Shown here one piece after another: positions 3,001 through 62,966 of a DNA stretch of 64,000 nt (position 1 is the first letter of the stretch; each line of letters opens with the position of its first letter). Made by a program: the position numbers and the translations under genes. The notes beneath the pieces were generated by a model, which made no database searches, was not told the DNA's origin, and saw only the letters and a program-made list of their open reading frames with translations. The stretch comes from a virus, in IMG/VR virus record IMGVR_UViG_3300005690_000024, positions 32,001 through 96,000 of that record; one strand, 5' to 3'.

Positions 3001-3389
3001 TGTCGCATCGTGAAGACAAGAAAATGTATAAGTCAGCCAATCCATTCTCCTGGTTCACTGGAGGTGCATCCAAGTTTATGGAGCACGATCGGAAGGAGAA
3101 GGAACAGATGCAGAAGTACGAGGAACTGCTACCAGCAGTAAAGGCTGATTTAGGGACGTGGCAAAATCTTGAGAGCGAAGTTCGGCAGAAGCAGAGACAG
3201 AAAGCAGCCACAACGAACGACGCTGTTATGCCTCAGTCCTCAGTGGACCCAGAGATGAAAGACATTCTCAAGCAGTTGGCAGTCGCGTTGATGGCGTTTG
3301 AGAACAAGTCAAAGGGCGTTGCTGTTCCAGAAGTCCGGACGGCAAGAATTCCGACTCCGAGACAGCCTGTTGCCACGAGTGTATCGTAG
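3..3389 (+). CDS. Tail tape-measure-like protein, 5'-truncated by the window edge
   Basis: Frame is open from base 3 (GGTGPGAGFAGTAVGQIKTLAATY...). More than 1100 aa, Ala/Gln/Glu/Lys-rich and helical-looking, upstream of tail-like genes. No diagnostic motif, so the call is positional and compositional. Confidence 0.55.
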   Translation, partial: GGTGPGAGFAGTAVGQIKTLAATYLGLYEGINAVMREMEHGKEVLRSQYDTGIVGQQELVRQTPNIGTEDIGNMAKWAQESQKELMTSQENILNLAGFTKSMGVTDPEGMKQMTSLALKATRGDVETARGLQQLASVLLKTQGSNNYKGALGQARQMAEVSAGVVESIFNANISDRLVTMSIASQNQKIDGLSVEQIMEFIGTGSRTFSDQSGDNMSRAVLVGIDKLIDFKPQKSYKGARVPDEVMAAYKAAGSVQERYDVVSQSKELGFQFAERMAAAQGPLAGMIDKMFTSSEFRKNLLETQKLVTPLEEAGQFLDEQTQELQKNTEVLGIVNSTLMGLQEVRTSPKGIASGATQKLMDDVSKIDLAGVDFMATAQGALAENLARKEMLSSGMPYNEAMLKLQNVQTIIRQQKSKGMPEDSAAMMQLREIENGLAELADKITQVMTPAEKELREINAKLTPYDTKRALAPGQMEQNRQRREEIQELRKRRDVLLTPEGQAEFNRDAKMKDNIRGVFRDEVNGGGAVGGKAMPKGVINIQGGGGGLFSVPAEVLRKAAMPSKKTDFLGEVQAAASALKQEREASGRAAFPKSNRFVENGALRAHMATGKVGDIFSGLPANGSSLQAAGMAGNLRAKMGEIEPGLMGAAMRQANGYNGFVAAMNDPNRLTPAEKERIAKAAAERIVNGGAAADPTNLGKRFGKGSPIAVDSAFVQTGKTWWEREQSAQAAGNVRLDMAMPEGSARAVRAAKAKMEAKRLGLVPVEEPLTKKQLATPEGRAEQKARELRAQRIKDLGLENSIVDSAKAASNQVSGNLNGGQDRFRGLLKEAVDDAKAWEAMSSPEAKDLVGAIADKRSPDPKMPFGEVVVPKKKKVESESMHPPMEQVKEAAPPMESVPVPDPNVPNTNWREAVNASRMFRSSEAAPNSEGNDWWNAKAFYGKNVQSDGLETGIALNEEALRRIEADANDGLDDLIKKRDAAEQKLDEGKAKLDKIKNEGMSHREDKKMYKSANPFSWFTGGASKFMEHDRKEKEQMQKYEELLPAVKADLGTWQNLESEVRQKQRQKAATTNDAVMPQSSVDPEMKDILKQLAVALMAFENKSKGVAVPEVRTARIPTPRQPVATSVS

Positions 3390-3436
3390 GTAATGCCACA
3401 AAATGGGCGGTTCAATGTGCCGCCCAGTCATAATGA

Positions 3437-3835
3437 GTGAAAGAAAGGTTCCAGAAGATGTCAGGTATCACGGCAGAACAAGCGGTTGAGATGATCCAGC
3501 CAGGCGAGAACCCATCCGATGCGTATACACGTATCTTCGCACATCAGTGCAAGCCATGCGACTTTCGCAGATGGTTCTCGATGCTGAAGCAGAGCAAAGA
3601 ATGCAAGGAGATCAGTGAAACCGTTGCGCAGGACATTAGTGTCCTGATCGAAGAGGGACTTGACGATCACGCGGCATTCCTGGAGATGTACCCGAACTAC
3701 GTGACGCATGCGGCATTCGACACTGCATGGATCAGGAAGAAACGTAAGAAGCCTGTACCTGTTGTTGAGGAAGTTGTAGAGGAAGACGCGATTTCTGAAG
3801 ATTTGGCAATCAATATCGACGCACCGCTCGTATAG
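3437..3835 (+). CDS. Hypothetical protein
   Basis: 132-aa ORF filling the gap between tail genes. Its TAG stop lies within a CGTATAGGTACT motif. Confidence 0.6.
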   Translation: MKERFQKMSGITAEQAVEMIQPGENPSDAYTRIFAHQCKPCDFRRWFSMLKQSKECKEISETVAQDISVLIEEGLDDHAAFLEMYPNYVTHAAFDTAWIRKKRKKPVPVVEEVVEEDAISEDLAINIDAPLV

Positions 3836-24257: not shown

Positions 24258-24283
24258 ACGTGGAATTCCGTTCCGCTGTTGCG

Positions 24284-24376
24284 GCGGAACGACTAAAATC
24301 AGCCGGTTTGCGGACGGTTGACTTCCAATTTCAAAGCAGCGTTGCCCGCAAACTCGGCTGCATTTTATTGTTATTT
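24284..24376. mobile_element. attC-type integron recombination site 1
   Basis: GAAC-gac-TAAAAT-CAGCCG-GTTTGCGG...CCGCAAAC-[T]-CGGCTG-[C]-ATTTTA-tt-GTTATTT: imperfect inverted repeat with AAC/GTT cores, an unpaired spacer and two extrahelical bases. Confidence 0.85.
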
Positions 24377-24388
24377 TGCGAGGGTGTA

Positions 24389-24589
24389 ATGGCAGACCCA
24401 AAACACAGCGATGAAATACACAAGAGAAAATTGATAGTTGTAAGGGCAATTCGCGATGGCTGCCCAGATTGCCCCGACGAAGGATTGATGTGCGAAAAGC
24501 ATTTGAGGGAGTTGAGGCCACTGTTCACGCGACCTAGGCAGCGGCTGAAAGCGTTTGAGGATCGGTTGTTTTCGGATCAGTCAAAATAA
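24389..24589 (+). CDS. Cassette ORF A (66 aa, CPDC...CEKH, possibly metal-binding)
   Basis: AGGGTG RBS just after attC1. The TAA stop is part of the AAATAAC core of attC2. Confidence 0.7.
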   Translation: MADPKHSDEIHKRKLIVVRAIRDGCPDCPDEGLMCEKHLRELRPLFTRPRQRLKAFEDRLFSDQSK

Positions 24590-24670
24590 CGCTCGCGATC
24601 AGCGGTGGCCGCGAGAGATTTTGTTAGCAGTGGAGACGTTGACGGCCTCCGCTGCATTGCGTGGTTATTT
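24584..24670. mobile_element. attC-type site 2
   Basis: AAATAAC-gct-CGCGAT-CAGCGG-tGGCCG...CGGCC-t-CCGCTG-[C]-ATTGCG-tg-GTTATTT. Confidence 0.88.
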
Positions 24671-24686
24671 TGCATTGGGGAATGCG

Positions 24687-24911
24687 ATGAAAATTGGACC
24701 AGTGAATTTTGGAAGCCTCAATGCGTGGCGGTACGCATGGAAGATGCGGGGATCGGTTCCGATGGTATACCTTCTGCGAAACAGCAAGGGTGTCATACCT
24801 GGGCGATGGGGCTTCGTCGTTCTCGGCTTTGAGTTCGGCTCTCGCAACTCAGATAGCAAGTTTGGACAGTGGTTGCACCGTGTTGGGCTGTGGCCGTTCA
24901 TGTCAAAATAA
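24687..24911 (+). CDS. Cassette ORF B (74 aa)
   Basis: ATG 17 nt after attC2. The TAA stop lies in the AAATAAC core of attC3. Confidence 0.7.
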   Translation: MKIGPVNFGSLNAWRYAWKMRGSVPMVYLLRNSKGVIPGRWGFVVLGFEFGSRNSDSKFGQWLHRVGLWPFMSK

Positions 24912-25008
24912 CGCTTGGCATAAGCCGGGCGAGTGTCGACGTGGTGTGAGTGTAATTTTCCCGCATGACGACAGAGGTTAACGCCTCGGCTTCATGCCAT
25001 TGTTAGTT
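24906..25008. mobile_element. attC-type site 3
   Basis: AAATAAC-gct-TGGCAT-AAGCCG-GGCG...CGCC-[T]-CGGCTT-[C]-ATGCCA-tt-GTTAGTT. Confidence 0.9.
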
Positions 25009-25021
25009 TGCGAGGGTGATC

Positions 25022-26337: not shown

Positions 26338-26592
26338 AGTGTGGCCACACTTGAAGGTGGTTAAAATCAGGCCAGATAAGTCAGTTGCTGGTGTGTGTAG
26401 TTGCTGAAAACACGGGATTTTATGGGGTTGTTAGTTGTTGTTCTCGCTTTCGTAAAGCGTAGGTCATCGATTCGAATTCGATCGGCGGCTCTTTTTTGAG
26501 AGCCAAAAACACAAGGGAATCAGTGAAAACTGGTTCCCTTTTTTGTTGCGCTGTGTTTGGTAAACTACGCTTCCACACTTGTTCCCACACTT
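26337..26592. mobile_element. attP: core matching the 3' half of tRNA-Thr(CGT) at 26445-26491, plus arm-type repeats
   Basis: CGCT-TTCGTAA-AGCG anticodon arm, ATCGA-TTCGAAT-TCGAT T-arm, then CGGCGGCTC. CCACACTT at 26345, 26573 and 26585; perfect palindrome AAGTGTGGCCACACTT at 26337-26352. Directly upstream of the integrase. Confidence 0.8.
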
Positions 26593-26603
26593 GGAAGCGT
26601 GAA

Positions 26604-27782
26604 ATGGCAGACCGACCAGAGAAACCTTATCCAGACTTCCCGTTGTTTCCACATGCAAAGGGGTACTGGTGCAAGACGATCAAAGGGAAGCAGTGGGCGT
26701 TTGGTCCGTGGGCTGACCCTGATGCGGCGTTGCAGAAGTATCTGGACTGGCGAGACCAGATCATGGCGGGGAGAGACCCGCGTAAGCAGGCTGCTGAGAC
26801 CGCTGTGGGCGTCACGCTGAAGGAACTGTGTAATCTGTTCCTTGTCGCGAAGAAGGGCGCCATGGAGCGGGGAGAGCTTTCTGTGAGGTCATACGCTGAG
26901 TACAGGGGTGAAGCGAAGTGGCTGTGTGACTGCCTGGGGCGCGAGACAGGTGTGGCCACACTGATGCCAGCCGACTTTGCGAAGTTGCGGGCGAGCTATC
27001 CGAAGACGTGGGGCATTGTCACGGTGTGTGGGCACATCACGAAGACGAAGTCGATCTTTCGGTTTGGTTACGAGAATCGGATCATCGAGCGGGAGGTGTC
27101 GTTCGGGTCGGAGTTCGTGAAGCCGACACGGTCACAGTTTCGGAGGAACAGGCAGCAGGCTGAATCAGAGCGGGGGTTGCTGCTGTTCAGCCGGGAAGAG
27201 TTGCTGGTGATCATTGAGAAGGCGGAAGGGTGGCTGAAACCAGCGATCCTGTTGGGCATCCAGGCGGGGTTGGGAAATCGTGATGTCTCGGGGCTGACGG
27301 ACAGGCATGTTGACTTGGAAGGTCGGTGGGTTTCGTACTCGCGCCCGAAGACGGGGGTGTATCGGAGTTTTCCACTGTGGCGAGAGACGGTGGATGCGAT
27401 CGCGGCTTATCGGAAGACTCGGGTTGATGCGAAGCGGGTCGAGGATGGCGGGCTGTGCTTTCTGACTCGGCAGGGCTGTCCGTTGGTCACTGAGATGGTG
27501 CATGCAGACGGGCGGCATATTCAGGTGAACAATCCGACGTTGTCGTTTGCGAAGCTGTTGAAGCGGGAGGGGCTGAAGCGGGCTGACCTGAACTTCTATT
27601 CGCTTAGGAGGACGTTTGAGACGATAGCGGGGCAGTCGAAGGATCAGGTGGCGGTGGACCACATCATGGGTCATGCGGACGACAGCATGGGCGGGGTGTA
27701 TCGGCAGGGGATAGATCGTGAGAGATTGGAGGCAGTTGTACAGCATGTGCATCGGTGGCTATACGGTTCTGGTGAAATTTAG
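26604..27782 (+). CDS. int: Phage tyrosine integrase
   Basis: GLGNRDV (R), RPKTG (K), FYSLRRTF (YxxR in place of HxxR), MGHAD (H), GVY (Y). The N-terminal KPYPDFPLFPHA arm domain is of a type I associate with planctomycete integrases. Confidence 0.93.
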   Translation: MADRPEKPYPDFPLFPHAKGYWCKTIKGKQWAFGPWADPDAALQKYLDWRDQIMAGRDPRKQAAETAVGVTLKELCNLFLVAKKGAMERGELSVRSYAEYRGEAKWLCDCLGRETGVATLMPADFAKLRASYPKTWGIVTVCGHITKTKSIFRFGYENRIIEREVSFGSEFVKPTRSQFRRNRQQAESERGLLLFSREELLVIIEKAEGWLKPAILLGIQAGLGNRDVSGLTDRHVDLEGRWVSYSRPKTGVYRSFPLWRETVDAIAAYRKTRVDAKRVEDGGLCFLTRQGCPLVTEMVHADGRHIQVNNPTLSFAKLLKREGLKRADLNFYSLRRTFETIAGQSKDQVAVDHIMGHADDSMGGVYRQGIDRERLEAVVQHVHRWLYGSGEI

Positions 27783-32421: not shown

Positions 32422-34646
32422 TTGGGAGGTTACTGTGGTTGAATTGATTGTTGGGCAGATTTGCATGTCGATGTTGAGCCTTGAAAAGTACACGGTTTGT
32501 GGCTTTGGCAGTGATGGGTGTGCGATCCTAGAAGATGCGGAGGGCGGTCTTCACTGGGCTGGCGATATTGATATTGCGGATCTTGTTGATGTGACGGGCA
32601 AGTCAGTCGCGGTTGAGGCCGATGAGCCTGAAGTCACTGAGATGGTGGTCAGTTACGGCTACTTCATGGGTGCGGCGTTGACGGGACTTCTGGCGAACCC
32701 GAATATAATAAGGACATCGGACGTCATGCCTAGCGGCGGCCTTGTTCGGAGTATAGTGAAGTGCGCGAAAACGTTTGCAGAGTCATTAGTGGAGGCGTCA
32801 GATGGACAGTCGTGAGTTGAAGCCGTTGCAGACGCACGGGCGGTACGTTGAGGTGTGGGTTCCACCAACTGAGCGTTTTGTGCGGTATGAGCGTTCAGAT
32901 GAGCGGTGGGCGCGTCCGTTGGGTATAGGCACTGTGGGGAGGGAACTGGAAGCGTTGTACGACGTTCGGGATGAGACGTTCCAGTTGATCGGTTACACGC
33001 GGCACAATCCTGCTGTGTTGGGTGGGTATCGTCGTTTGCCGTTGATGTTCTCAAGGGCGTCTCTGCAGTCTTACGCGCCATGGACGAACCCGAGTGAAAG
33101 GGAGGTCTTGGCGGATGTTAACCAGATTGATCTGCGGGTTGATGTTTACGGGATGGGTCGTGAGCAATTCTGGGTTTGGATCTGCCCGCTGGCCCAGTCG
33201 TTTGATTTGTTGGAACTGAAGTGGGTGTCGGTTGTTGGCAAGGACAATCGTCGGGAGTGGGAGTGGGATCTTCGGAAGCGTTTGGCGGATCGTGACAACG
33301 TGTGTTACTCAGGTCGGAGGTATTGAGGTGCGAAAGCGAAAGTCGATTGTTGGTGCGTCGTGTGCGTCGTACGCCTTGGGGCGAATGGTCGTTTCAGAGA
33401 AGGAGGTTGATGATGGCGTACTGGTTTATTGTGATAACTGGCTTCATGGGATGCTTCTTCGGTATGTCGCCATGAATGATCTTCCTGACGGCTGGCGTGT
33501 TGATCGGTTGAATACAAGTCCTGATTGCCGTGGTGTTAAGAAAGGGTAGGTGTTTCGATGCGGATTTTGACAAGCAACTTCCAGATGGCGTTGCGTATAG
33601 CGATCGAGGAAGAACTGAAGTTGGTTCGGAAGAGTGGCCTGGAGACGAACGGCTTCATTGAGGGTCTTCGTGAAGTGTTGGAGGCATCGCGTCGTGGCGA
33701 GCAGATTACTGTTTCTGACAGGTAGGTGGCGTTGTGAAAACGTTTTGTATTGAGTGTCGTCATCATTGTGGTGCTGAAGCAGATCTTCCGTGGCACTTGC
33801 ATGTGTGCCTGCACCCTGATGTTCAGCGTGTTCAGGAGAGAGATCCTGTCACTGGACGGTTTGGTTTTGTGAGCCGCAATTCTCTTGGAGAGTTGTACTT
33901 CACTCCAGACGTGAGTCCCTGTTGCCGTGATTTCAATCGTGGCAACTGCGAGATGTATGAGCCGAAGTGAATCTTGTGATTCATTGTTTACGTGTTTCAA
34001 AGTTTGATCGTAGGAGATTGTTATGCCGTGCAATGGTGGGAATTAATTCGGAAGAACCGAGTACATCGATAATCCAGACCACAAGAAGAAGATTGACGTG
34101 TTGACTCGTCAGTTGTGCCATGCCTGTCAGATGCTCAGTGAGGGTGGCATTGAGTTGCCAAAGGAGTTGGACGAGTGGTGGTATGAGCACAAGCTTGAGG
34201 ATGAGGCGAGAGTTGCAGAAGCAAAGCGTCGAGCTGAGGCGCAGTCTGCGGTGAAACGCCGTGCAGAGTATCTGGAGAGTGTTCGATCTCGTGTGTTGGG
34301 TCAGCTCACAGAAGATGAGCGAGAGTCGCTTGGGTTGTAGGTCTGTTTGTCTGATGGGAATGAAAGGGGCGTGGTTGTGCAAGACAATCAGTTTTGGAGA
34401 GACAAGGCAATTCGTGCGTCACACTACTTCTGGTTCAAGTTTGGGTGGCGACTGCAGACGTGCACTGGCTGCAATGGCAGCGGTCGATACGACAACACGG
34501 GTTCGCCAAGTTGTAGTTCGTGCGATGGCACTGGTCGCACCTGGGTTCGTGGTCCAAGGTGGAGTGACAACGCGATAGTGAAGCATGCTCCAAGATTGGC
34601 AGCGTTGTATGCGAGGATCTGTGCTGAGCGTGAAAAGAGAAAGTGA
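32372..34646 (+). CDS. Row of hypothetical ORFs (about 32372-32815, 32802-33326, about 33326-33549, 33558-33725, 33734-33970, 34023-34340, 34347-34646)
   Basis: Contiguous + strand ORFs. The last has CTGCNGSG...CSSCDGTG, a DnaJ-type Zn-finger repeat. Confidence 0.5.
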
Positions 34647-34815
34647 TGCCATTCAATCCAGGCGATATTGTTGAGTGTGTCGAAGGCGGCACGATGTTTA
34701 TCACGGGGAAGCGATACTGCGTTTTGCTGTGTGTCCCCATCGGTTCATCGGGGCGATTTATTTTGCGTCTGAGCAATCTCGCTTGGACGTTTGCAGATAG
34801 ATTTGTGGGGGTTGT

Positions 34816-35475
34816 ATGAAAGAAGACGTGAAGACAGAGCATGAGAGCTGGTGCCTCGTGCAAGCGAACAGGGTTTCAGGGCGGTCTGATGACTTGTTCG
34901 CCACATCGCTTGAGCACCAGCACACGATTCAGATCAAGATTGCACGGGCTGCGCAGTACTCGGGTCACGGGAGTACTCGGTACATGGATCGGGAGCAGTT
35001 GATTGCGATCGAGATGTCCCCGATGCAGTGGGCAGAGTTCATTACGACGATGAACATGGGTTGTGGCGTGCCGTGCACCTTGCGTCGATTCGAGGGGAAG
35101 GCTGTTAAGGGCCAGAAGCACGAGACGGAGACGGTGCGTATTCAGGATCAGTTCTCCCAGCATGCAAAAGCAGTGGGGGAGAAAATGCGTGATCTTCACG
35201 AGGATATTGCGAGTCGGCTTGAGAAGACATCGCTGTCCAAGAAGGCTCAGGGGGAGATCCTAGAAAAGATCTACATGTTGACGCGGGTGTTTCACGACTA
35301 CATGCCGTTTATGCACGATCGGTTTGTTGAGGCGTGCGAGTCGACGGTTTCTGAGGCGAAGGCGGCTGTTGATGCTTTTGTGTCGCATGCGGTGTTGCAG
35401 ACGGGGCTTGAGTATCTGGCGGAGCATGCCCAGCAGCGATTGATCGGTGTGAAGGGGGAAGGCGATGTCGAGTGA
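34816..35475 (+). CDS. Hypothetical phage protein (MNMGCGVPCTL motif plus coiled coil)
   Basis: 219-aa ORF with an RBS. Confidence 0.65.
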   Translation: MKEDVKTEHESWCLVQANRVSGRSDDLFATSLEHQHTIQIKIARAAQYSGHGSTRYMDREQLIAIEMSPMQWAEFITTMNMGCGVPCTLRRFEGKAVKGQKHETETVRIQDQFSQHAKAVGEKMRDLHEDIASRLEKTSLSKKAQGEILEKIYMLTRVFHDYMPFMHDRFVEACESTVSEAKAAVDAFVSHAVLQTGLEYLAEHAQQRLIGVKGEGDVE

Positions 35476-37140
35476 TCCTCGGCTTCTGGTAAACATCTTT
35501 GGGGCATCGGAAATGAAACAGTATTTGATAACGGCAATCGAAGCAGAAGAGTGCATGCCTATTGATGGTGCCGAAATACGCATCGTCACGAACGCTGGCA
35601 CATTCACGTTATGGGTCCAGACGTGCAATCAGAAGATGGGGACGCTGAAGGTTGAAATTGGACACGGTGAGGAACATCAAACTCACTTTATTAGGAAAGA
35701 TAAATGACGATCAGGATGAACCACCGCAAGGTGGCAGAAGTGATTCTGATGGAACTTGCGAGGCATAAGGAAGGGCGGTTTAGCTTCTGCTGCTCGTTTG
35801 CCTATGACGATGATAGCGATTTCCTAAACAAAGTTGCGGAAAGACTTGGTCTCCTCGAAATGGGCTGCAAGCCATTTCTGTCTCGCATTCAGCGAGTATG
35901 CAGGAAACTTGAGCAGTGGGGGATTCTTGGTGGGCAGTTGCTGTCTTGTCACGCTGAGTATTTTGGAGAACCGCGAGTTTTGAAGCGGTATGAATTCGGT
36001 GATCATGGATATGCAATGCGGCTTGCTCCTGATCTGTGGCCGAATTACAAGCCAATGGGGCGAGCTGAAGTAGAACTTGAGATACTTCTCGAAAGACCAT
36101 TCCCTCGAAAGCAGCAGGCTGCCGATTTCGATTCTGAAGGCTGGGGGTGTCATGAAACTTGAACCGAGCGTGTTGGCGAACAAGGTGAGCCTGCATCTGA
36201 GTGCGGGCGGTCGTGTGAAGATGACTGTTCGCGGGAGGGGTATGCGCCCATCGTGGAACGTTGTCGGCACTCAGGTTTACGGGGATGTGTATTCGGTGAA
36301 GTTGTGCAGTCGTCGTTCTACGGGTGGCGTTTGGCGTGATGTTGGTGAGTTGGCAGACCAGATGGTGTTTCATTTTCAGTGAGGGGTTCGTTGTGTCGCA
36401 AGATGTTCCAAAGATTTCTGATGCGAATTTGGCGTTGCTGAAGTGGATTCAGACCAACAAGTCGATTCGGGCTTACAAGGGGAAGAGTCCTGAGCATGAT
36501 TGCGTGTATGAGGCGTGCGTTGTTCTTGAGAAGAACGGCTGGCTCTTTCGCTTTATTGAAGATGGTCCTTTGGTCGTCTTTGTCTACAGCCCGAAGAAGT
36601 GTGAATCGTGCGGCGGCGATATTCCGTGTCCAGGGTAGGAGGGTGTTTTCATGCCAGTGTTCCATGTGAAGGTTGAGGCGTCGTTTGAGGTTTATGCGGA
36701 TGACGAAAGTCAGGCGGCAATGGCAGCAATCGCTGTTTCAGGCGGCTGCAGTAGTGATTCGGTTAAAGTCGGGGAAAGGCGGCTCGTTGGTGGCTGCATT
36801 GTGCATCCGACAGGTTCAGAGGTCGTTTTCTGCGACCGTCGCTTGAGTCAACTGGAGATCATTGAGAAGTTTGGGGGGCTTCCAGATGAACCCTGAAGAA
36901 CTGACCCAGCGGGTGATTGATCACATGGCAACGGGCGGGCAGGTGACGTTCGTCCTTCGTCGGGATGAGGATGACTTTCGCCGGGACGATCGTCGGGTGA
37001 TTCGTGCCACGTTCTACGACTATGCGTCAGTGGTTCCAGGGCGTGGTCGCACGGGCATTATTGACTGGGAGTCGAACTACGAGCAGAGCTGGTCTTGCAC
37101 CTTCCTTCTGCTGGTGACCCATGAGCCGATGTTTCTGTAA
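35465..37140 (+). CDS. Row of hypothetical ORFs (about 35465-35707, 35704-36162, about 36150-36382, about 36370-36638, 36651-36896, about 36885-37140)
   Basis: Packed + strand ORFs ending at a terminator. Confidence 0.5.
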
Positions 37141-37169
37141 GTCGCACCTTCATTCCAAGGTTGCACCTT

Positions 37170-37201
37170 AACCCGCGCGGGGAACCTGCTGCGGGTTTTT
37201 T
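37170..37201 (+). terminator. Rho-independent terminator
   Basis: AACCCGCGCGG...CTGCTGCGGGTT plus a T run. Confidence 0.75.
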
Positions 37202-38260
37202 CGTTGGTGCCACCCTGACACGCTATACGGACGCATTACAGGCCCGTGGCGGCGTTTTGTGGCCTAGTGCGACACTTTACTCGTCTTGGCGTTGCAGGCC
37301 CTCAGATCGCCTCTAATGATTTGCAACGTGTTGGAAATGGGATTTGATACGATTTGCAACTTTGCCCTTTTTTGGAAATAGTTGATCCAAAACGGGCTGA
37401 AGCGTGGTTGAGGGCGTCATAGTCGTTCTGCCAAAACCAAACTACTGGACTCTCGAAGACATAGTATCGATTTCTCTGCCATCCTGCGCGATGGGCACCC
37501 TTCCAGTAGGGGGTGTGGCAACAGGGAAGTCGATACTATGTCTTTTTTTACGCGCTGGGTTTGGCGTGTCACTGGAACGGTCCAGGACACGCCCGAGGGG
37601 GTTATCCTTGGTGAAGGCGTTAAACTCAGCCTTGGAAGCGCCGTGACGTGTTGACGGATGACGACGAAGTTCAAACCCTCTCTCAAACCTTTCCTCTTGC
37701 ATTGCATGAGGGGGCTTTGGGGGAGCGCGTTCAGTGCTTCGGGAATCGAACGAAGTTCGTTCCCCAGTATGTCCAGCGCAGCGTAGACATACATTCTTCT
37801 ATCGCGAAGCGATAGGACTGTTTATTGCGCGCGCGTTATCAGTCCCTTCGGGACTGGACTGCTCTGATCCAGCGAAGCGTCGATCACTGCGATTCAGGCA
37901 CTGTGTGCCTGTTGACTCCTCTAGGAACTGAGGCATAAGCCATGCATTCAGTACGGTTGGGCATTTCCCTTTTTACATACAGACATATTCCTTTCTTTGC
38001 GCCTCTTCTCTTTGTCCAGGTCCAGCGTAGCGTCGACCGCTTTAGTCTATACGTCCCTGTGGGACTGCGCGCAGGACGGTGGCTCGCTTTTATGGGGCTG
38101 GAGCTGCTAAAACGGCTCGCAGGATGAAAAACCCAGCAAATTCGCAACGGTCGATACCTTTTGCACCGCTGTTTCCATTTGCAACGTGTTGGAAATGGTG
38201 TTGGTGGTTGGGTTGAATCTGGGTGAATCGGGTGAAAAGTTTTAGATCTTTTCAGTTGGG
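37202..38260. other. Highly structured non-coding region of about 1.1 kb (candidate origin, ssDNA signal or ncRNA locus)
   Basis: No credible gene. At least 10 hairpins, a 15-bp perfect inverted repeat (37456-37470 with 37530-37544), and a 22-bp direct repeat near each end. Confidence 0.65.
37319..38198 (+). repeat. Exact 22-bp direct repeat ATTTGCAACGTGTTGGAAATGG (37319-37340 and 38177-38198), near-palindromic
   Basis: The second copy extends to CCATTTGCAAC-GT-GTTGGAAATGG (11-bp arms, 1 mismatch). A split variant lies at 37351-37380. Confidence 0.9.
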
Positions 38261-38328
38261 GTTGCGTATAGGTACTGAGGTGCGTAGTATTCCGCCGCGT
38301 CGGTTTTCATTTTGTGGGAGGTTTGGTT

Positions 38329-39679
38329 ATGGGTATGTGGGACAAGGTTGTAATCGGTGATGGTCGTACTGCGTGCTCGGCATTGAAGGTGTTTGAGATC
38401 GAGGGAGATCACCACATTTCGCAGGACAGTGTTTCGTACTGGATCGGTGACATTTATCTCGGTGAGGGGATGACGATTTTTAAGAACACTCCAGCGGGCG
38501 AGGGGTTGACTGAGATGATTCGCCAGGGTGCGAACCTTATTGAGATCAATCTGTACTTGAAGGATCTGTTCTTGCGTCACATCGACCCGAGCATTTTGCG
38601 GAAGTTGATTGACCGTGCGTTGGCAGAGGCACGCAAGGACGGGGAGAAGTCGAAGGCTAGAGAGATTCGGGCGGCGTTGAACATTTTCTAGGGTGGCTGA
38701 AATGCGGTTACATCCAAGAGTTATGCCGTGTCAGGCGGCTGAGAACGATCTGCACGAAGTCATTATTGACTGGATGGAGCGTCATCCGGATTTGACGTGG
38801 GCGGAGGCTGTGCGATGCCTTGCGGGGATCATTGCGAGTTATTCGAAGTATCCAGTTCGCGAGGAGCGGCATGGCGCCGACTCTGAGAAGCGAACGGACG
38901 AGGCTTGAGGGGAGGGGTGTAGTATGTTCTTTTTCTGGAAACGGTTGTTTCGAAAGAAACCTATGGGTCCGAAAGATCCTATGGATTTCAGGTTGACCGA
39001 GAATAGCAGGGAGTGGTGGACTAGCACGTACTGCCCTCACTGTAAGAAGGCAACAGGGCACCACGAGCAGATGGCGGGGATCTGCAATGGGTGTGGTGGG
39101 TTTGGTGATATGGGGCGTTATCGTTCAAGCCGAGAGATTTGGGATGGCGAGAAGTGGGTGATCCAGCGGAAGTACGGTAACAGGCCAGCCGACTGCGTGG
39201 TTGAGTCGCATTGATTTTGTGTTGGCGTGATTGCTGGTTGAATTCGATATGGGGAGGTTTAGATGGAGAATCACCCGTTGCCGTGGACGGTGAAGTACTG
39301 GCGTCGTTGTCCAGAGTGGCATGAGAAGTCATCGCCGTACATTGTTGATGCGAATGGCGCTGAGGTTGTATGTATGCCTCAGAACGTTGGGAATCCTGGC
39401 GAGTACGACGTTGTGGCCGACGAGACGGCGTTGCGAATTATTGCGAGCGTGAACATAGTTCCCGATTTACGTAAGGCAGTTCGGGAGGGCGGTGTTCAGA
39501 AGCCGTATCTTGAGCGGGAGAAAACGGAGATCGTTCGGCAGTACAACCCGGAGTATGGGGACGATCGGGTGTGCAAGTGCGGTCATCCGTATTATCGGCA
39601 CTTCGACTTTTATGAGGAAGCGGACAGGCAGGCATGTGGCTGCAAGTATTGTGAGTGCTGGACTTTCGAAGAGGCGTAG
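38329..39679 (+). CDS. Four hypothetical ORFs (38329-38691, about 38693-38908, 38924-39214, 39263-39679)
   Basis: RBS-preceded ORFs. The last two carry CxxC or CxCGH Zn-binding motifs. Confidence 0.55.
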
Positions 39680-39687
39680 GGGGAGTT

Positions 39688-40257
39688 ATGGCTGTTTGGT
39701 TCACGAGCGACACACACTTCAACCATGCGAAGATCATCGAGTACTCGCAGCGTCCGTTCGCGGATGTTGAGGAGATGACTGAGGTGATGATCGAGCGGTG
39801 GAACAAGCGGGTGAAGCCTGGTGATTTGATTTACCATCTGGGAGACTTCGCGTTGTCGTGGGGTCGACAGCACGCGGATTTGGTGGACGGGATACTGTCT
39901 CGTCTGAACGGCCAAAAGTGGCTGATTGTGGGGAATCATGATCGGGACGAGGTGGTGGAGAATGATCGGTGGGTGAAGGTGAAGGATCTGCATGAGATCA
40001 AGGTGGATCTTGGTGGGGTTCACAAGCAGCGGATCATGATGTGCCATTACCCGTTGCGGTCTTGGTCGCAGATGCATCGTGGGTCGTGGATGCTGCATGG
40101 GCATTGTCATGGGAATCTGAGTGACGTTGGCGGGAAGATCCTGGATGTTGGTGTTGACGTTTGGGGCTACGCTCCTGTGAGTCTGGAGTGGGTTGCGGAG
40201 TACATGGGCAAGCGTGAAGTGGTTGTGTGTGATCACCATACTTTGGGGGAGAGTTGA
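39688..40257 (+). CDS. Calcineurin-like metallophosphoesterase
   Basis: WFTSDTHFNH, YHLGDF, LIVGNHD, HYP, LHGHCH. GGGGAG RBS. Confidence 0.92.
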   Translation: MAVWFTSDTHFNHAKIIEYSQRPFADVEEMTEVMIERWNKRVKPGDLIYHLGDFALSWGRQHADLVDGILSRLNGQKWLIVGNHDRDEVVENDRWVKVKDLHEIKVDLGGVHKQRIMMCHYPLRSWSQMHRGSWMLHGHCHGNLSDVGGKILDVGVDVWGYAPVSLEWVAEYMGKREVVVCDHHTLGES

Positions 40258-61850: not shown

Positions 61851-62966
61851 GTGCCGGATTTCACTTGTGATGTAGAGGATATCACGATCGATGAGACGAT
61901 CTATCAGCGGGCTGAGATTCGGCAGGATATTGTAGATGACCTGGTTGCACTGATCGATAACGCAGGGTCCGATGTTTGGCCGTTTGCAACAAGAGTGCAA
62001 GTGTGCCGAATCGGAACGAAACTGTTCGTCACGGATGGGGCTCACCGTGTCGAGGCGTGTCGTGTGCGTAAACTTCGCGTTGACGTCAGCATGAAGACGG
62101 TCACCCGTGAGGAGGCGGTTCTGGAAGGCATCAAAGCCAACGGAACGCACGGGGCGAAACGATCAGCAGCGGATACACGCAAGGCTGTCTATTCAGCCGC
62201 TATGTTGTTTCCGGACATGAGCAACCAGGTCATCGCAAATCATATGAGTGTCACAGCGGAGACTGTGCGCAAGTATCGATCGGAACTGGACATTGAGCAG
62301 CCCGAGAAGCGAAAGGGGATTGATGGGGTTGAAAGAAGTGCGAAAAAGAACAACAGAAAGAAAAAATCGACAGCGAGTGAGGCAGGTTCTGAACCTAATA
62401 GTAGTCAAGCACAAGAAGAAGAAAAAGTAGTCGTCCGAGAAGAACCTGTTGTTGTAGCTCCCGTCGAACCAGAGGTGCGTCTGACGGTCGAGCAGAAGTA
62501 TGAGCAGCAGTGGCTGCAGTTGATTGCTGGGCTGAAGGAGAAAGAGGTCGCGGAACTCACGGAATGGGTTGCCGACTTTCATAGGCTTGTGATGCCAGCC
62601 AAGCGGGACACGTTGTTTCCAGTTGAGAAAGAGCGTGACGTTTCGATCAGGCGGCGCAGAAAGCCGACCGAGATGGAGTTTGAACAGTTCTGGAATGTGT
62701 ATCCACGAAAGACAAATAAGCTCAAAGCCAAGACAGCGATGGATAAAGCGTTTCGGCTGCTTACGAGCACCTTGGAACCAGATCAGGTAATGGACAAGCT
62801 TGTTAGTGCGGCAAAATTGTATCGTGATCGTTGCAATCCAGACCCAGAGTACCAGATGCACCCGAGTAGTTGGTTGAATGCTGGTCGATGGGAAGATGCT
62901 CCAGATTCTATCGGCAAGAAGAAAGACGGCGGTTCCTGGCAGTACGGCATGTTTACGGAGGAGTGA
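61851..62966 (+). CDS. Replication initiator with a ParB-like N-terminal domain
   Basis: N-terminal LFVTDGAHRVEA (ParB/Srx); C-terminal FEQFWNVYPRKTNKLKA...MHPSSWLNAGRWED, typical of phage replication proteins upstream of dnaC. Confidence 0.78.
   Translation: MPDFTCDVEDITIDETIYQRAEIRQDIVDDLVALIDNAGSDVWPFATRVQVCRIGTKLFVTDGAHRVEACRVRKLRVDVSMKTVTREEAVLEGIKANGTHGAKRSAADTRKAVYSAAMLFPDMSNQVIANHMSVTAETVRKYRSELDIEQPEKRKGIDGVERSAKKNNRKKKSTASEAGSEPNSSQAQEEEKVVVREEPVVVAPVEPEVRLTVEQKYEQQWLQLIAGLKEKEVAELTEWVADFHRLVMPAKRDTLFPVEKERDVSIRRRRKPTEMEFEQFWNVYPRKTNKLKAKTAMDKAFRLLTSTLEPDQVMDKLVSAAKLYRDRCNPDPEYQMHPSSWLNAGRWEDAPDSIGKKKDGGSWQYGMFTEE

Follow-up and report, generated by a model that had tools for sequence, protein, structure and literature searches.

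To our knowledge, few systems are well documented in which a signal is read from a hairpin on single-stranded or extruded DNA, namely the G4 and phiX-type origins, the single-strand initiation (ssi) sites of RSF1010, the plasmid Frpo element, and the promoters of phage N4. Here we describe a cluster of eight small hairpins at positions 37741-38065 of a 64,000-nt window, i.e., bases 32001-96000 of the 120.5-kb IMG/VR virus record IMGVR_UViG_3300005690_000024 (coordinates are those of the window unless marked as genome), which may represent a strand-specific signal on folded + strand DNA. Natural sites of the DNA mini-hairpins with which this cluster can be compared include the G4 origin of complementary-strand synthesis (oric), RSF1010 ssiA (CCGAAGG), and the N4 promoters (PMC13037366). 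Mini-hairpins of the sequence d(GCGNAGC) show melting temperatures of 70-76 C, while their RNA versions are far less stable, and the variable position is a single base that tolerates any nucleotide (PMC13037366); an earlier note on this DNA, made from the sequence alone, had likewise held that the exceptional stability of C-GNA-G triloops is a property of DNA rather than RNA and that such triloops are present at single-stranded DNA priming and origin signals, and this literature bears it out. The three N4 promoters carry a GC-rich heptamer between covarying inverted repeats, and their hairpins extrude from duplex DNA at physiological superhelicity, stabilized by SSB, a protein that binds single-stranded DNA (PMC4496689); a signal of this kind thus does not depend on a single-stranded stage in the life cycle.

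Each of the eight hairpins that the earlier note had placed in this cluster is present in the sequence at the position given there. They are, in order:

37741-37764, + strand: H0, GGGAA-T-CGAAC GAA GTTCG TTCCC, with 10 Watson-Crick pairs, one bulged T, and a GAA cap
37767-37792, + strand: repeat hairpin A1, GTATGTC-CA-GC-GCA-GC-GTA-GACATAC
37799-37815, + strand: H1, CTATCGC GAA GCGATAG, a perfect 7-bp triloop hairpin that contains GCGAAGC
37840-37856, - strand: B1, CAGTCCC TTC GGGACTG, a perfect 7-bp triloop hairpin
37865-37886, + strand: repeat hairpin A2, TGATC-CA-GC-GAA-GC-GTC-GATCA
37895-37911, no strand assigned: H2, CAGGCAC TGT GTGCCTG, a perfect 7-bp triloop hairpin
38019-38038, + strand: repeat hairpin A3, GGTC-CA-GC-GTA-GC-GTC-GACC
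38048-38067, no strand assigned: B2, a triloop hairpin (GTCCC TGT GGGAC, 38053-38065) inside a repeat of B1

The inner hairpin of H0, CGAAC-GAA-GTTCG, spans 37747-37759, and GGGAA/TTCCC extends its stem to 37741-37764; B1, with its GAA cap and CCGAAGG core on the - strand, is an 80% repeat of 38048-38067. Six perfect triloop hairpins with stems of at least 5 bp occur in the 331 nt from 37740 to 38070, compared to 0.30 in dinucleotide shuffles, a density approximately 20 times that of the shuffles; none of 5000 shuffles reached six. With stems of at least 7 bp, three occur in the same interval against 0.014 expected. The cluster is the densest 400-nt stretch of the genome, with 6 triloop hairpins as compared to at most 3 elsewhere outside the locus, and 3 of the 6 perfect triloop hairpins with stems of at least 7 bp in the entire genome fall within 113 nt here. 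GNA caps are found on the + strand in five of the eight hairpins (binomial P of approximately 1e-5) and on the - strand in one. We conclude that the cluster is a real, statistically robust, and strand-biased set of DNA-type mini-hairpins, located in a probably transcriptionally insulated gap.

The cores of the repeat hairpins A1, A2, and A3 are GTCCAGCGCAGCGTAGAC (37771-37788), ATCCAGCGAAGCGTCGAT (37867-37884), and GTCCAGCGTAGCGTCGAC (38020-38037), respectively. All three copies of TCCAGCGNAGCGT in the 120.5-kb genome are at the cluster; the window contains CCAGCGNAGCGT 3 times, compared to 0.07 expected, and the rest of the genome does not contain it on either strand; and a covariance model derived from A1-A3 scored these copies at 41-42 bits, with the next match in the 120.5 kb searched at 14.6 bits. 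As previously described, the three repeats share their internal loop and cap while the closing stem covaries. Changes are two-sided at three lower-stem pairs and one-sided at none, and the pairing register is specific; the repeats also extend further than had been described, with lower stems of 7 bp in A1 (GTATGTC/GACATAC), 5 bp in A2 (TGATC/GATCA), and 4 bp in A3 (GGTC/GACC). A shuffle control for covariation is weak with three copies (the score was reached by 50 of 500 shuffles); the chance of the flanks pairing this far beyond the conserved TC/GA is roughly 4^-10 by a hand estimate that used no tool. The conserved core is asymmetric, with a CA / GTN internal loop below GC-GNA-GC (in an alternative view, an A-T pair, a bulged G, and a C.N mismatch); conservation among A1-A3 stops at this 16-nt core, and no coding sequence follows A1 or A2. 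The combination of an asymmetric conserved core with non-conserved, complementary flanks thus argues for a folded strand, rather than a linear duplex site or the site of a duplex-binding dimer, as the form in which these repeats are recognized.

With regard to the type of nucleic acid that folds, all 58 stem pairs of the eight hairpins are Watson-Crick pairs, whereas two terminator-like elements in the same gap, T1 and T2, have G.U pairs. All eight cluster loops are triloops, and the apex of A1-A3 is GCGNAGC, with C, A, or T as the middle loop base. Folding of the entire region gave z-scores of -3.2 and -2.4 for the + and - strands as DNA and of -2.4 and -2.0 for the + and - strands as RNA, respectively; the comparison of DNA and RNA folds suggested by the earlier note (-3.2 versus -2.4 on the + strand) thus yielded a small difference. 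As in ssi-type signals, the stable + strand hairpins lie in a non-coding stretch, the features of which are:

37141-38328, no strand assigned: gap of 1188 nt, flanked by two + strand genes and non-coding based on skew, codon score, and Pfam
37170-37205, + strand: intrinsic terminator T1, 3' of the upstream gene, with a 12-bp stem, a GAA cap, and six U
37319-37340, no strand assigned: left 22-bp near-palindrome, ATTTGCAAC-GT-GTTGGAAAT, an exact repeat of 38177-38198
37455-37551, + strand: Y-shaped terminator-like element T2, in which a basal stem of 24 bp carries two inner hairpins and is followed by seven U
37955-38017, + strand: pyrimidine-rich, G-poor tract with an AT skew of -0.33 and a GC skew of about 0
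38177-38198, no strand assigned: right 22-bp near-palindrome, identical to the left copy
38264-38277, + strand: promoter-like motif, an exact copy of GCGTATAGGTACTG, 52 nt 5' of the next start codon
38329-38691, + strand: first gene after the gap, a 120-aa orphan with GGGAGG in front and a codon score of +0.40

Within the gap, GC skew drops from approximately +0.3 to approximately 0. Open reading frames (ORFs) in the gap show codon log-odds of -0.18 to +0.06, compared to +0.18 to +0.40 for the flanking genes, and none matched Pfam; a protein-coding gap was ruled out by these codon scores of spurious frames and by the lack of a Pfam match. A tRNA or tmRNA in the region was searched for and found to be unsupported. 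A search of Rfam across the window returned nothing at gathering score; within the gap, the top candidate was a DnaX frameshift element (E 0.07; - strand, over T1), which is not credible. T1 (-18.9 kcal/mol, z -3.0) contains one G.U pair and one bulge; T2 (-52.1 kcal/mol, z -8.5) contains two basal-stem G.U pairs and shows this pairing on the + RNA strand only. T2 could be a terminator of unusual complexity or, alternatively, could form the 3' domain of a small RNA with a start near the left 22-bp palindrome. The tract at 37955-38017 holds the least stable duplex of the gap, with a 40-nt melting minimum at 37957 that is at the 99.7th percentile of the genome and outside its top 15 sites.

The cluster, in the right half of the gap, is thus positioned 3' of both T1 and T2, which occupy the left half, and 5' of the next promoter-like motif. 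The genome-wide motif to which the latter belongs, GCGTATAGKYACTG, has 32 matches with at most 3 mismatches, compared to 7.65 expected; 29 of these 32 are on the + strand, and the motif is probably a phage-specific promoter. No copy is found from 32921 to 38264, and a consensus scan of both strands for a sigma-70-type site found none, although the promoter type of the host may differ. Matches to the motif span 3828-61836 of the window (e.g., 19934, 27824, 38264, and 56621) and mostly lie directly 5' of genes. The record itself encodes a sigma-70-family protein (L203:4650-5291).

Among described systems, the N4 promoters P1-P3, which are used by a virion RNA polymerase, resemble A1-A3 in several respects, including three strand-specific copies, a GC-rich GCGNAGC-type heptamer with a triloop cap (G-purine-A in N4), flanking inverted repeats with variable bases that matter for pairing alone, and a likely shared ability to emerge from duplex DNA when it is supercoiled and SSB is present (PMC4496689, PMC13037366). 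By contrast, the N4-type stem is continuous over 5-7 bp whereas A1-A3 have a 2-bp apex over the CA/GTN internal loop; at the center of the triloop, N4-type hairpins have a purine and A1-A3 have C, A, or T. In N4, a conserved start region and early genes follow the hairpin, while conservation in the phage described here ends at the core. The N4 promoters are located at the entering end of a podovirus genome, whereas this cluster occupies the middle of the genome of a temperate phage whose terminase and portal are of the lambda type; a T7-like or N4-like RNA polymerase was not detected here, although the Pfam search for T7-like RNA polymerase (PF00940), which found no match in the record, was uninformative because control genomes likewise remained unmatched. 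G4 oric and RSF1010 oriV ssiA/ssiB are similar to the cluster in that each is a short one-strand run of SSB-resistant hairpins that includes mini-hairpin motifs, and the ssiA core CCGAAGG is also found in B1, on the minus strand at 37840-37856 (PMC13037366). These sites mark primase start points on single-stranded DNA, and by analogy the cluster may do likewise. They differ from the cluster in belonging to single-stranded DNA phages and plasmids with a known primase partner, rather than to a 120-kb double-stranded DNA phage in which neither a DnaG-type (Toprim, Zn-ribbon) nor a Prim-Pol primase gene was found and in which a search for a RepB-type primase was uninformative, as controls remained unmatched. 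There is no sequence similarity between the cluster and G4 oric or RSF1010 ssi.

We thus favor, with a probability of roughly 35%, the explanation that the + strand, once unpaired, acts as a strand-specific signal at the DNA level, with a priming or replisome-organizing role as the favored function. Unpairing could occur through cruciform extrusion under negative supercoiling, or the + strand could be exposed as a displaced strand or as lagging-strand template. The unpaired stretch 37741-38065 would then fold into a row of small hairpins, five of which would bear G.A-sheared GNA caps closed by C-G, predicted to be unusually stable in DNA and poor substrates for SSB. A1-A3 would share one asymmetric surface, i.e., the CA / GTN loop under the GC-GNA-GC mini-hairpin, displayed on differing stems, and may thereby offer a single structure-specific protein three places to dock. 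Such a signal would most likely serve to start or organize complementary-strand synthesis in an ssi-like manner, through priming or primosome loading, and service as a priming signal is a possible role for the cluster, which would stand at the head of a DNA-metabolism operon. Genes encoded 3' of the cluster include those for SSB, RNA ligase, a beta clamp, an SF2 helicase, two DNA methyltransferases, a ParB-like protein, an exonuclease, ERF, and a helix-turn-helix (HTH) protein, and the presence of SSB, sliding clamp, helicases, exonuclease, and ERF among them counts for a DNA-level function. So do the exclusively Watson-Crick stems, the + strand bias of GNA caps, the GCGNAGC apex, the position behind terminators, and the observation that the + strand as DNA folds better than shuffles and better than the - strand. 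While the sequence itself shows the hairpins, their uniqueness in the genome, covariation, and strand bias, and a setting that lacks both genes and a promoter, we infer that DNA rather than RNA folds, as well as the protein that would read the hairpins and the consequences that might follow; the preference of the earlier note for a DNA-structure element over a non-coding RNA is supported indirectly by position, pairing, GNA bias, and literature, while an RNA rival persists. A more specific version, in which three extruded hairpins would be start sites for a structure-specific polymerase or primase in a temperate double-stranded DNA phage that probably infects Planctomycetota, seems to us improbable; if true, it would place N4-like or ssi-like initiation outside Schitoviridae, single-stranded DNA phages, and plasmids, and would imply a reader protein unrecognizable by sequence.

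A number of observations weigh against a DNA-level signal. No relative was found that could show conservation of the hairpins. The genes for the replication initiator, DnaC-like loader, and DnaB are 24-27 kb from the cluster, and the primases named above were not found in a record that is maybe 80% complete. The whole-region z-scores differ little between DNA and RNA and between the two strands, and nearest-neighbor folding gives A2 and A3 a stability no greater than that of shuffles, so the case for their stability draws on the mini-hairpin behavior reported in the literature. T1, an RNA-type terminator, has a GAA triloop, and triloops are therefore not exclusive to DNA in this phage. Finally, the possibility that the host uses a promoter type other than sigma-70 means that absence of transcription across the cluster is not proven.

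Two other roles at the DNA level were considered by the earlier note, and both can be judged in part from the position of the cluster relative to the terminase and initiator genes, which are listed here with the integrase:

genome 915-2903: gpA-type large terminase
26496-27782: tyrosine integrase
61851-62966: replication initiator (phrog_270)

A cos or pac packaging site, which would be expected next to the terminase genes or at the genome ends, was rejected: the lambda-type terminase is encoded where the record begins, approximately 69 kb from the cluster, which is at genome position ~69.7 kb. A primary replication origin at the cluster is doubtful, as it would be 24-27 kb upstream of the genes for initiator, loader, and helicase; in addition, the weakest duplex of the gap falls outside the top 15 melting sites of the genome, unlike what would be expected of a lambda-like theta origin, which has initiator-binding iterons and a readily melting AT-rich tract within or close to the initiator gene, and this proposal is thus weakened rather than excluded outright. 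An A-rich tract inside the initiator gene (62329-62429) does belong to these top 15 sites, and we consider the interior of this gene (61851-62966) a candidate lambda-type origin. A perfect inverted repeat of 14 nt also lies within the gene, with its arms at 61935-61948 and 62221-62234. A Frpo-type long promoter-mimic hairpin was rejected as its architecture differs (PMC11541004).

Among the explanations that compete with a DNA-level signal, one proposes that the region functions as RNA, either as a structured + strand leader or as a small RNA, with A1-A3 binding an RNA-binding regulator such as a nut/boxB-style antiterminator; the tract at 37955-38017 would then be a Rho loading site before the replication and recombination operon. 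All repeat hairpins share the orientation of every neighboring gene, + strand RNA folds better than shuffles (z -2.4), the C-rich, G-poor tract is conspicuous against an otherwise G-rich + strand, and the GAA triloop of T1 indicates that such loops occur in phage RNA hairpins. The site before early DNA-metabolism genes also resembles lambda nutR-tR1, in which small hairpins and a C-rich unstructured tract similarly lie just before the replication genes of a temperate phage; lambda, however, has one boxB pentaloop where this phage has three tandem triloop hairpins, the phage hairpins are preceded by terminators and followed by the promoter motif, and neither a boxA-like element nor an N-like protein was identified here. 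The same position, 3' of two strong intrinsic terminators and 5' of the sole nearby promoter-like motif, speaks against an RNA function, as do the failure of the consensus scan to find a sigma-70-type site (which may not be the type used by the host), the lack of an Rfam match for the hairpins at E-values up to 10, the complete absence of G.U pairs among the 58 stem pairs, and the exclusive use of triloops when the other terminator-like hairpins of the phage mostly have loops of 5-8 nt. On balance, we consider an RNA function, including the Rho loading site, rather unlikely, although a serious contender. A control switch that operates on double-stranded DNA, in which dimeric DNA-binding proteins (a repressor, a ParB-like protein, or an initiator) would use as operators both the 22-bp near-palindromes and the perfect palindromes of 17 bp and in which looping of the 858 bp between the 22-bp sites would control the promoter at 38264, is unlikely. 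It would fit the two 22-bp near-palindromes, which are identical, bracket the cluster, and are the only copies in the genome, and which are likely an operator pair 858 bp apart; extra half-sites adjoin them (ATTTGCAAC at 37352 and ATTCGCAAC at 38140), 17 bp is a typical operator length for a palindrome, the region is directly 5' of the operon promoter motif, and ParB-like and HTH proteins are encoded downstream. Yet the palindromes comprise at least 5 different sequences, arms only 3 nt apart are unusual in operators, a + strand GNA bias has no meaning in duplex DNA, and a duplex-binding dimer leaves the asymmetric core and non-conserved complementary flanks of A1-A3 unexplained. With regard to the 22-bp repeats themselves, an extended duplication was rejected since the surrounding sequence is otherwise unrelated, as was the action of a serine recombinase, none being encoded in the record; an 18-mer of the palindrome gave 10 matches elsewhere, approximately the number expected by chance, with the best one inside a peptidase gene.

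It is also conceivable, though we find it quite unlikely, that the hairpins are structured repeats of a REP/BIME-like or MITE-like kind, lodged in intergenic DNA that the phage could spare and with incidental effects at most. REP/BIME palindromes are likewise small GC-rich, GNA-capped hairpin modules, and the geometry of the phage repeats, in which the lower stem is closed by the first C on one side and by the base following GTN on the other, recurs in many bacterial repeat families. A scan of metagenomes and bacterial genomes for paired motifs (two 12-mer copies 70-100 nt apart) found at least 119 metagenome loci and at least 120 genome loci, mostly unrelated repeat families. Among the 382 instances with distinct flanks that were listed, stem-CA-GC-GNA-GC-GTN-stem was the commonest of 27 geometries, with 37 instances having at least 3 bp of lower stem and 13 having at least 5 bp. 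These include a Bacteroidetes family (CGAC-CA-GC-GNA-GC-GTA-GTCG), further families in Saprospiraceae and Frigoribacterium, and repeats in Fibrobacteria. This search pattern, however, forced the 12-mer to occur twice per match, so that homology is not implied; the matched loci share no proteins with the phage except for an FGE-sulfatase domain; and in viral contigs, the flanks of lone motif copies pair at chance level. The phage itself has three copies at a single locus in a single orientation, with no dispersed copies. An element of the REP/RAYT or IS200/IS605 type was rejected on the same grounds and because no RAYT or Y1 transposase was found; Y1 transposase (PF01797) is absent from the record, while the control matched in 6 genomes. 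Because the pattern forced the motif, because proteins are unshared apart from the one domain, and because flanks of single viral copies pair at chance level, the recurrence of the geometry, although suggestive, is treated here as convergent use of a stable module rather than as homology. In viral contigs, a search with a single 15-base motif returned chance matches, with flanks that pair no more than expected, and a search with the paired motif returned one unrelated iteron array.

Among the Fibrobacteria repeats, one metagenome-assembled genome carries a non-coding tandem array (L364:5562-7078) of 17.7 copies of an 86-nt unit with 91% matches, and similar arrays were seen at L334, L341, and L373; the unit contains GCGGC-CA-GC-GAA-GC-GTC-GCCGC plus a second hairpin, and several arrays occur per genome. 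Contigs from gut Oscillospiraceae/Clostridia (L305, at approximately 3300-3630 on the minus strand, L260, L389, and L401) carry ~108-nt repeats with a covarying stem of 11-13 bp and the cap AAACCAGCGNAGCGTTT, directly followed by GGAAAGGAGGA, i.e., the same 12-mer in another geometry; L305, the sole locus of this type that was searched, had no Rfam match.

Searches for related phages gave no syntenic comparator, and the phage is an orphan. The gap had no match among GenBank phages by megablast or blastn, and the proteins flanking it had none among viral contigs; the sole match of the 120-aa gene after the gap among 5.8 billion proteins was itself. The metallophosphatase encoded at 39655-40257 has homologues in the thousands, and 80 loci examined showed no synteny to the phage; the ORF at 34816-35475 has five homologues, for which metagenome, viral, and genome contigs yielded no usable comparator locus. 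A close relative of the large terminase is absent from the viral contigs searched; its identity to GenBank phage terminases is 20-24%, and its identity to prophage terminases is 28-36% in 13 of 401 Planctomycetota genomes (E down to 6e-83), including G226, G360, G210, G159, and G273 (loci L462-L466). In a comparison with three Planctomycetota prophages, the terminase was the only gene in common with the phage, and the A1-A3 hairpin model found nothing significant in five terminase-bearing Planctomycetota genomes. This similarity of the terminase, much stronger than that to any GenBank phage, is a hint at Planctomycetota as the host phylum and is the sole host clue; the tRNA-like core of attP had no exact match in genome contigs.

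The case for the cluster is at present one of sequence anatomy. If a function were demonstrated, the locus would offer a handle on the control of replication or expression in a lineage almost without recognizable relatives, and a strand-biased cluster of this kind in a large temperate double-stranded DNA phage, together with the presence of its geometry in repeat families of many bacterial phyla, suggests that DNA-level signals are under-annotated.

Nearly all genes are carried on the + strand, with a GC content of 52% and a GC skew of approximately +0.25 throughout. The record encodes a lambda-family portal and capsid protein as well as a DnaC/IstB-like loader and DnaB; lambda-type head genes, the integrase, and the set of replication genes thus identify a temperate tailed phage. 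A second assembly of 120529 bases is almost identical in length, which suggests that the genome ends at the record start are real. An ORF of 2348 aa (genome 28343-35389; L202:10343 to window 3389) follows the head and tail genes, has no PHROG match, and has only coiled-coil matches in Pfam; it presumably encodes a very long tape-measure protein. A gene for a PspA/IM30-family protein adjoins one for a voltage-gated-type ion-channel protein (L203:6509-8067; genome ~101.5-103.1 kb). Imperfect palindromes of ~90 nt, with ends of the AAAATAAC...GTTATTTT type and no mini-hairpin motif, are found at 24280-25010 of the window, where they start at or just past stop codons.

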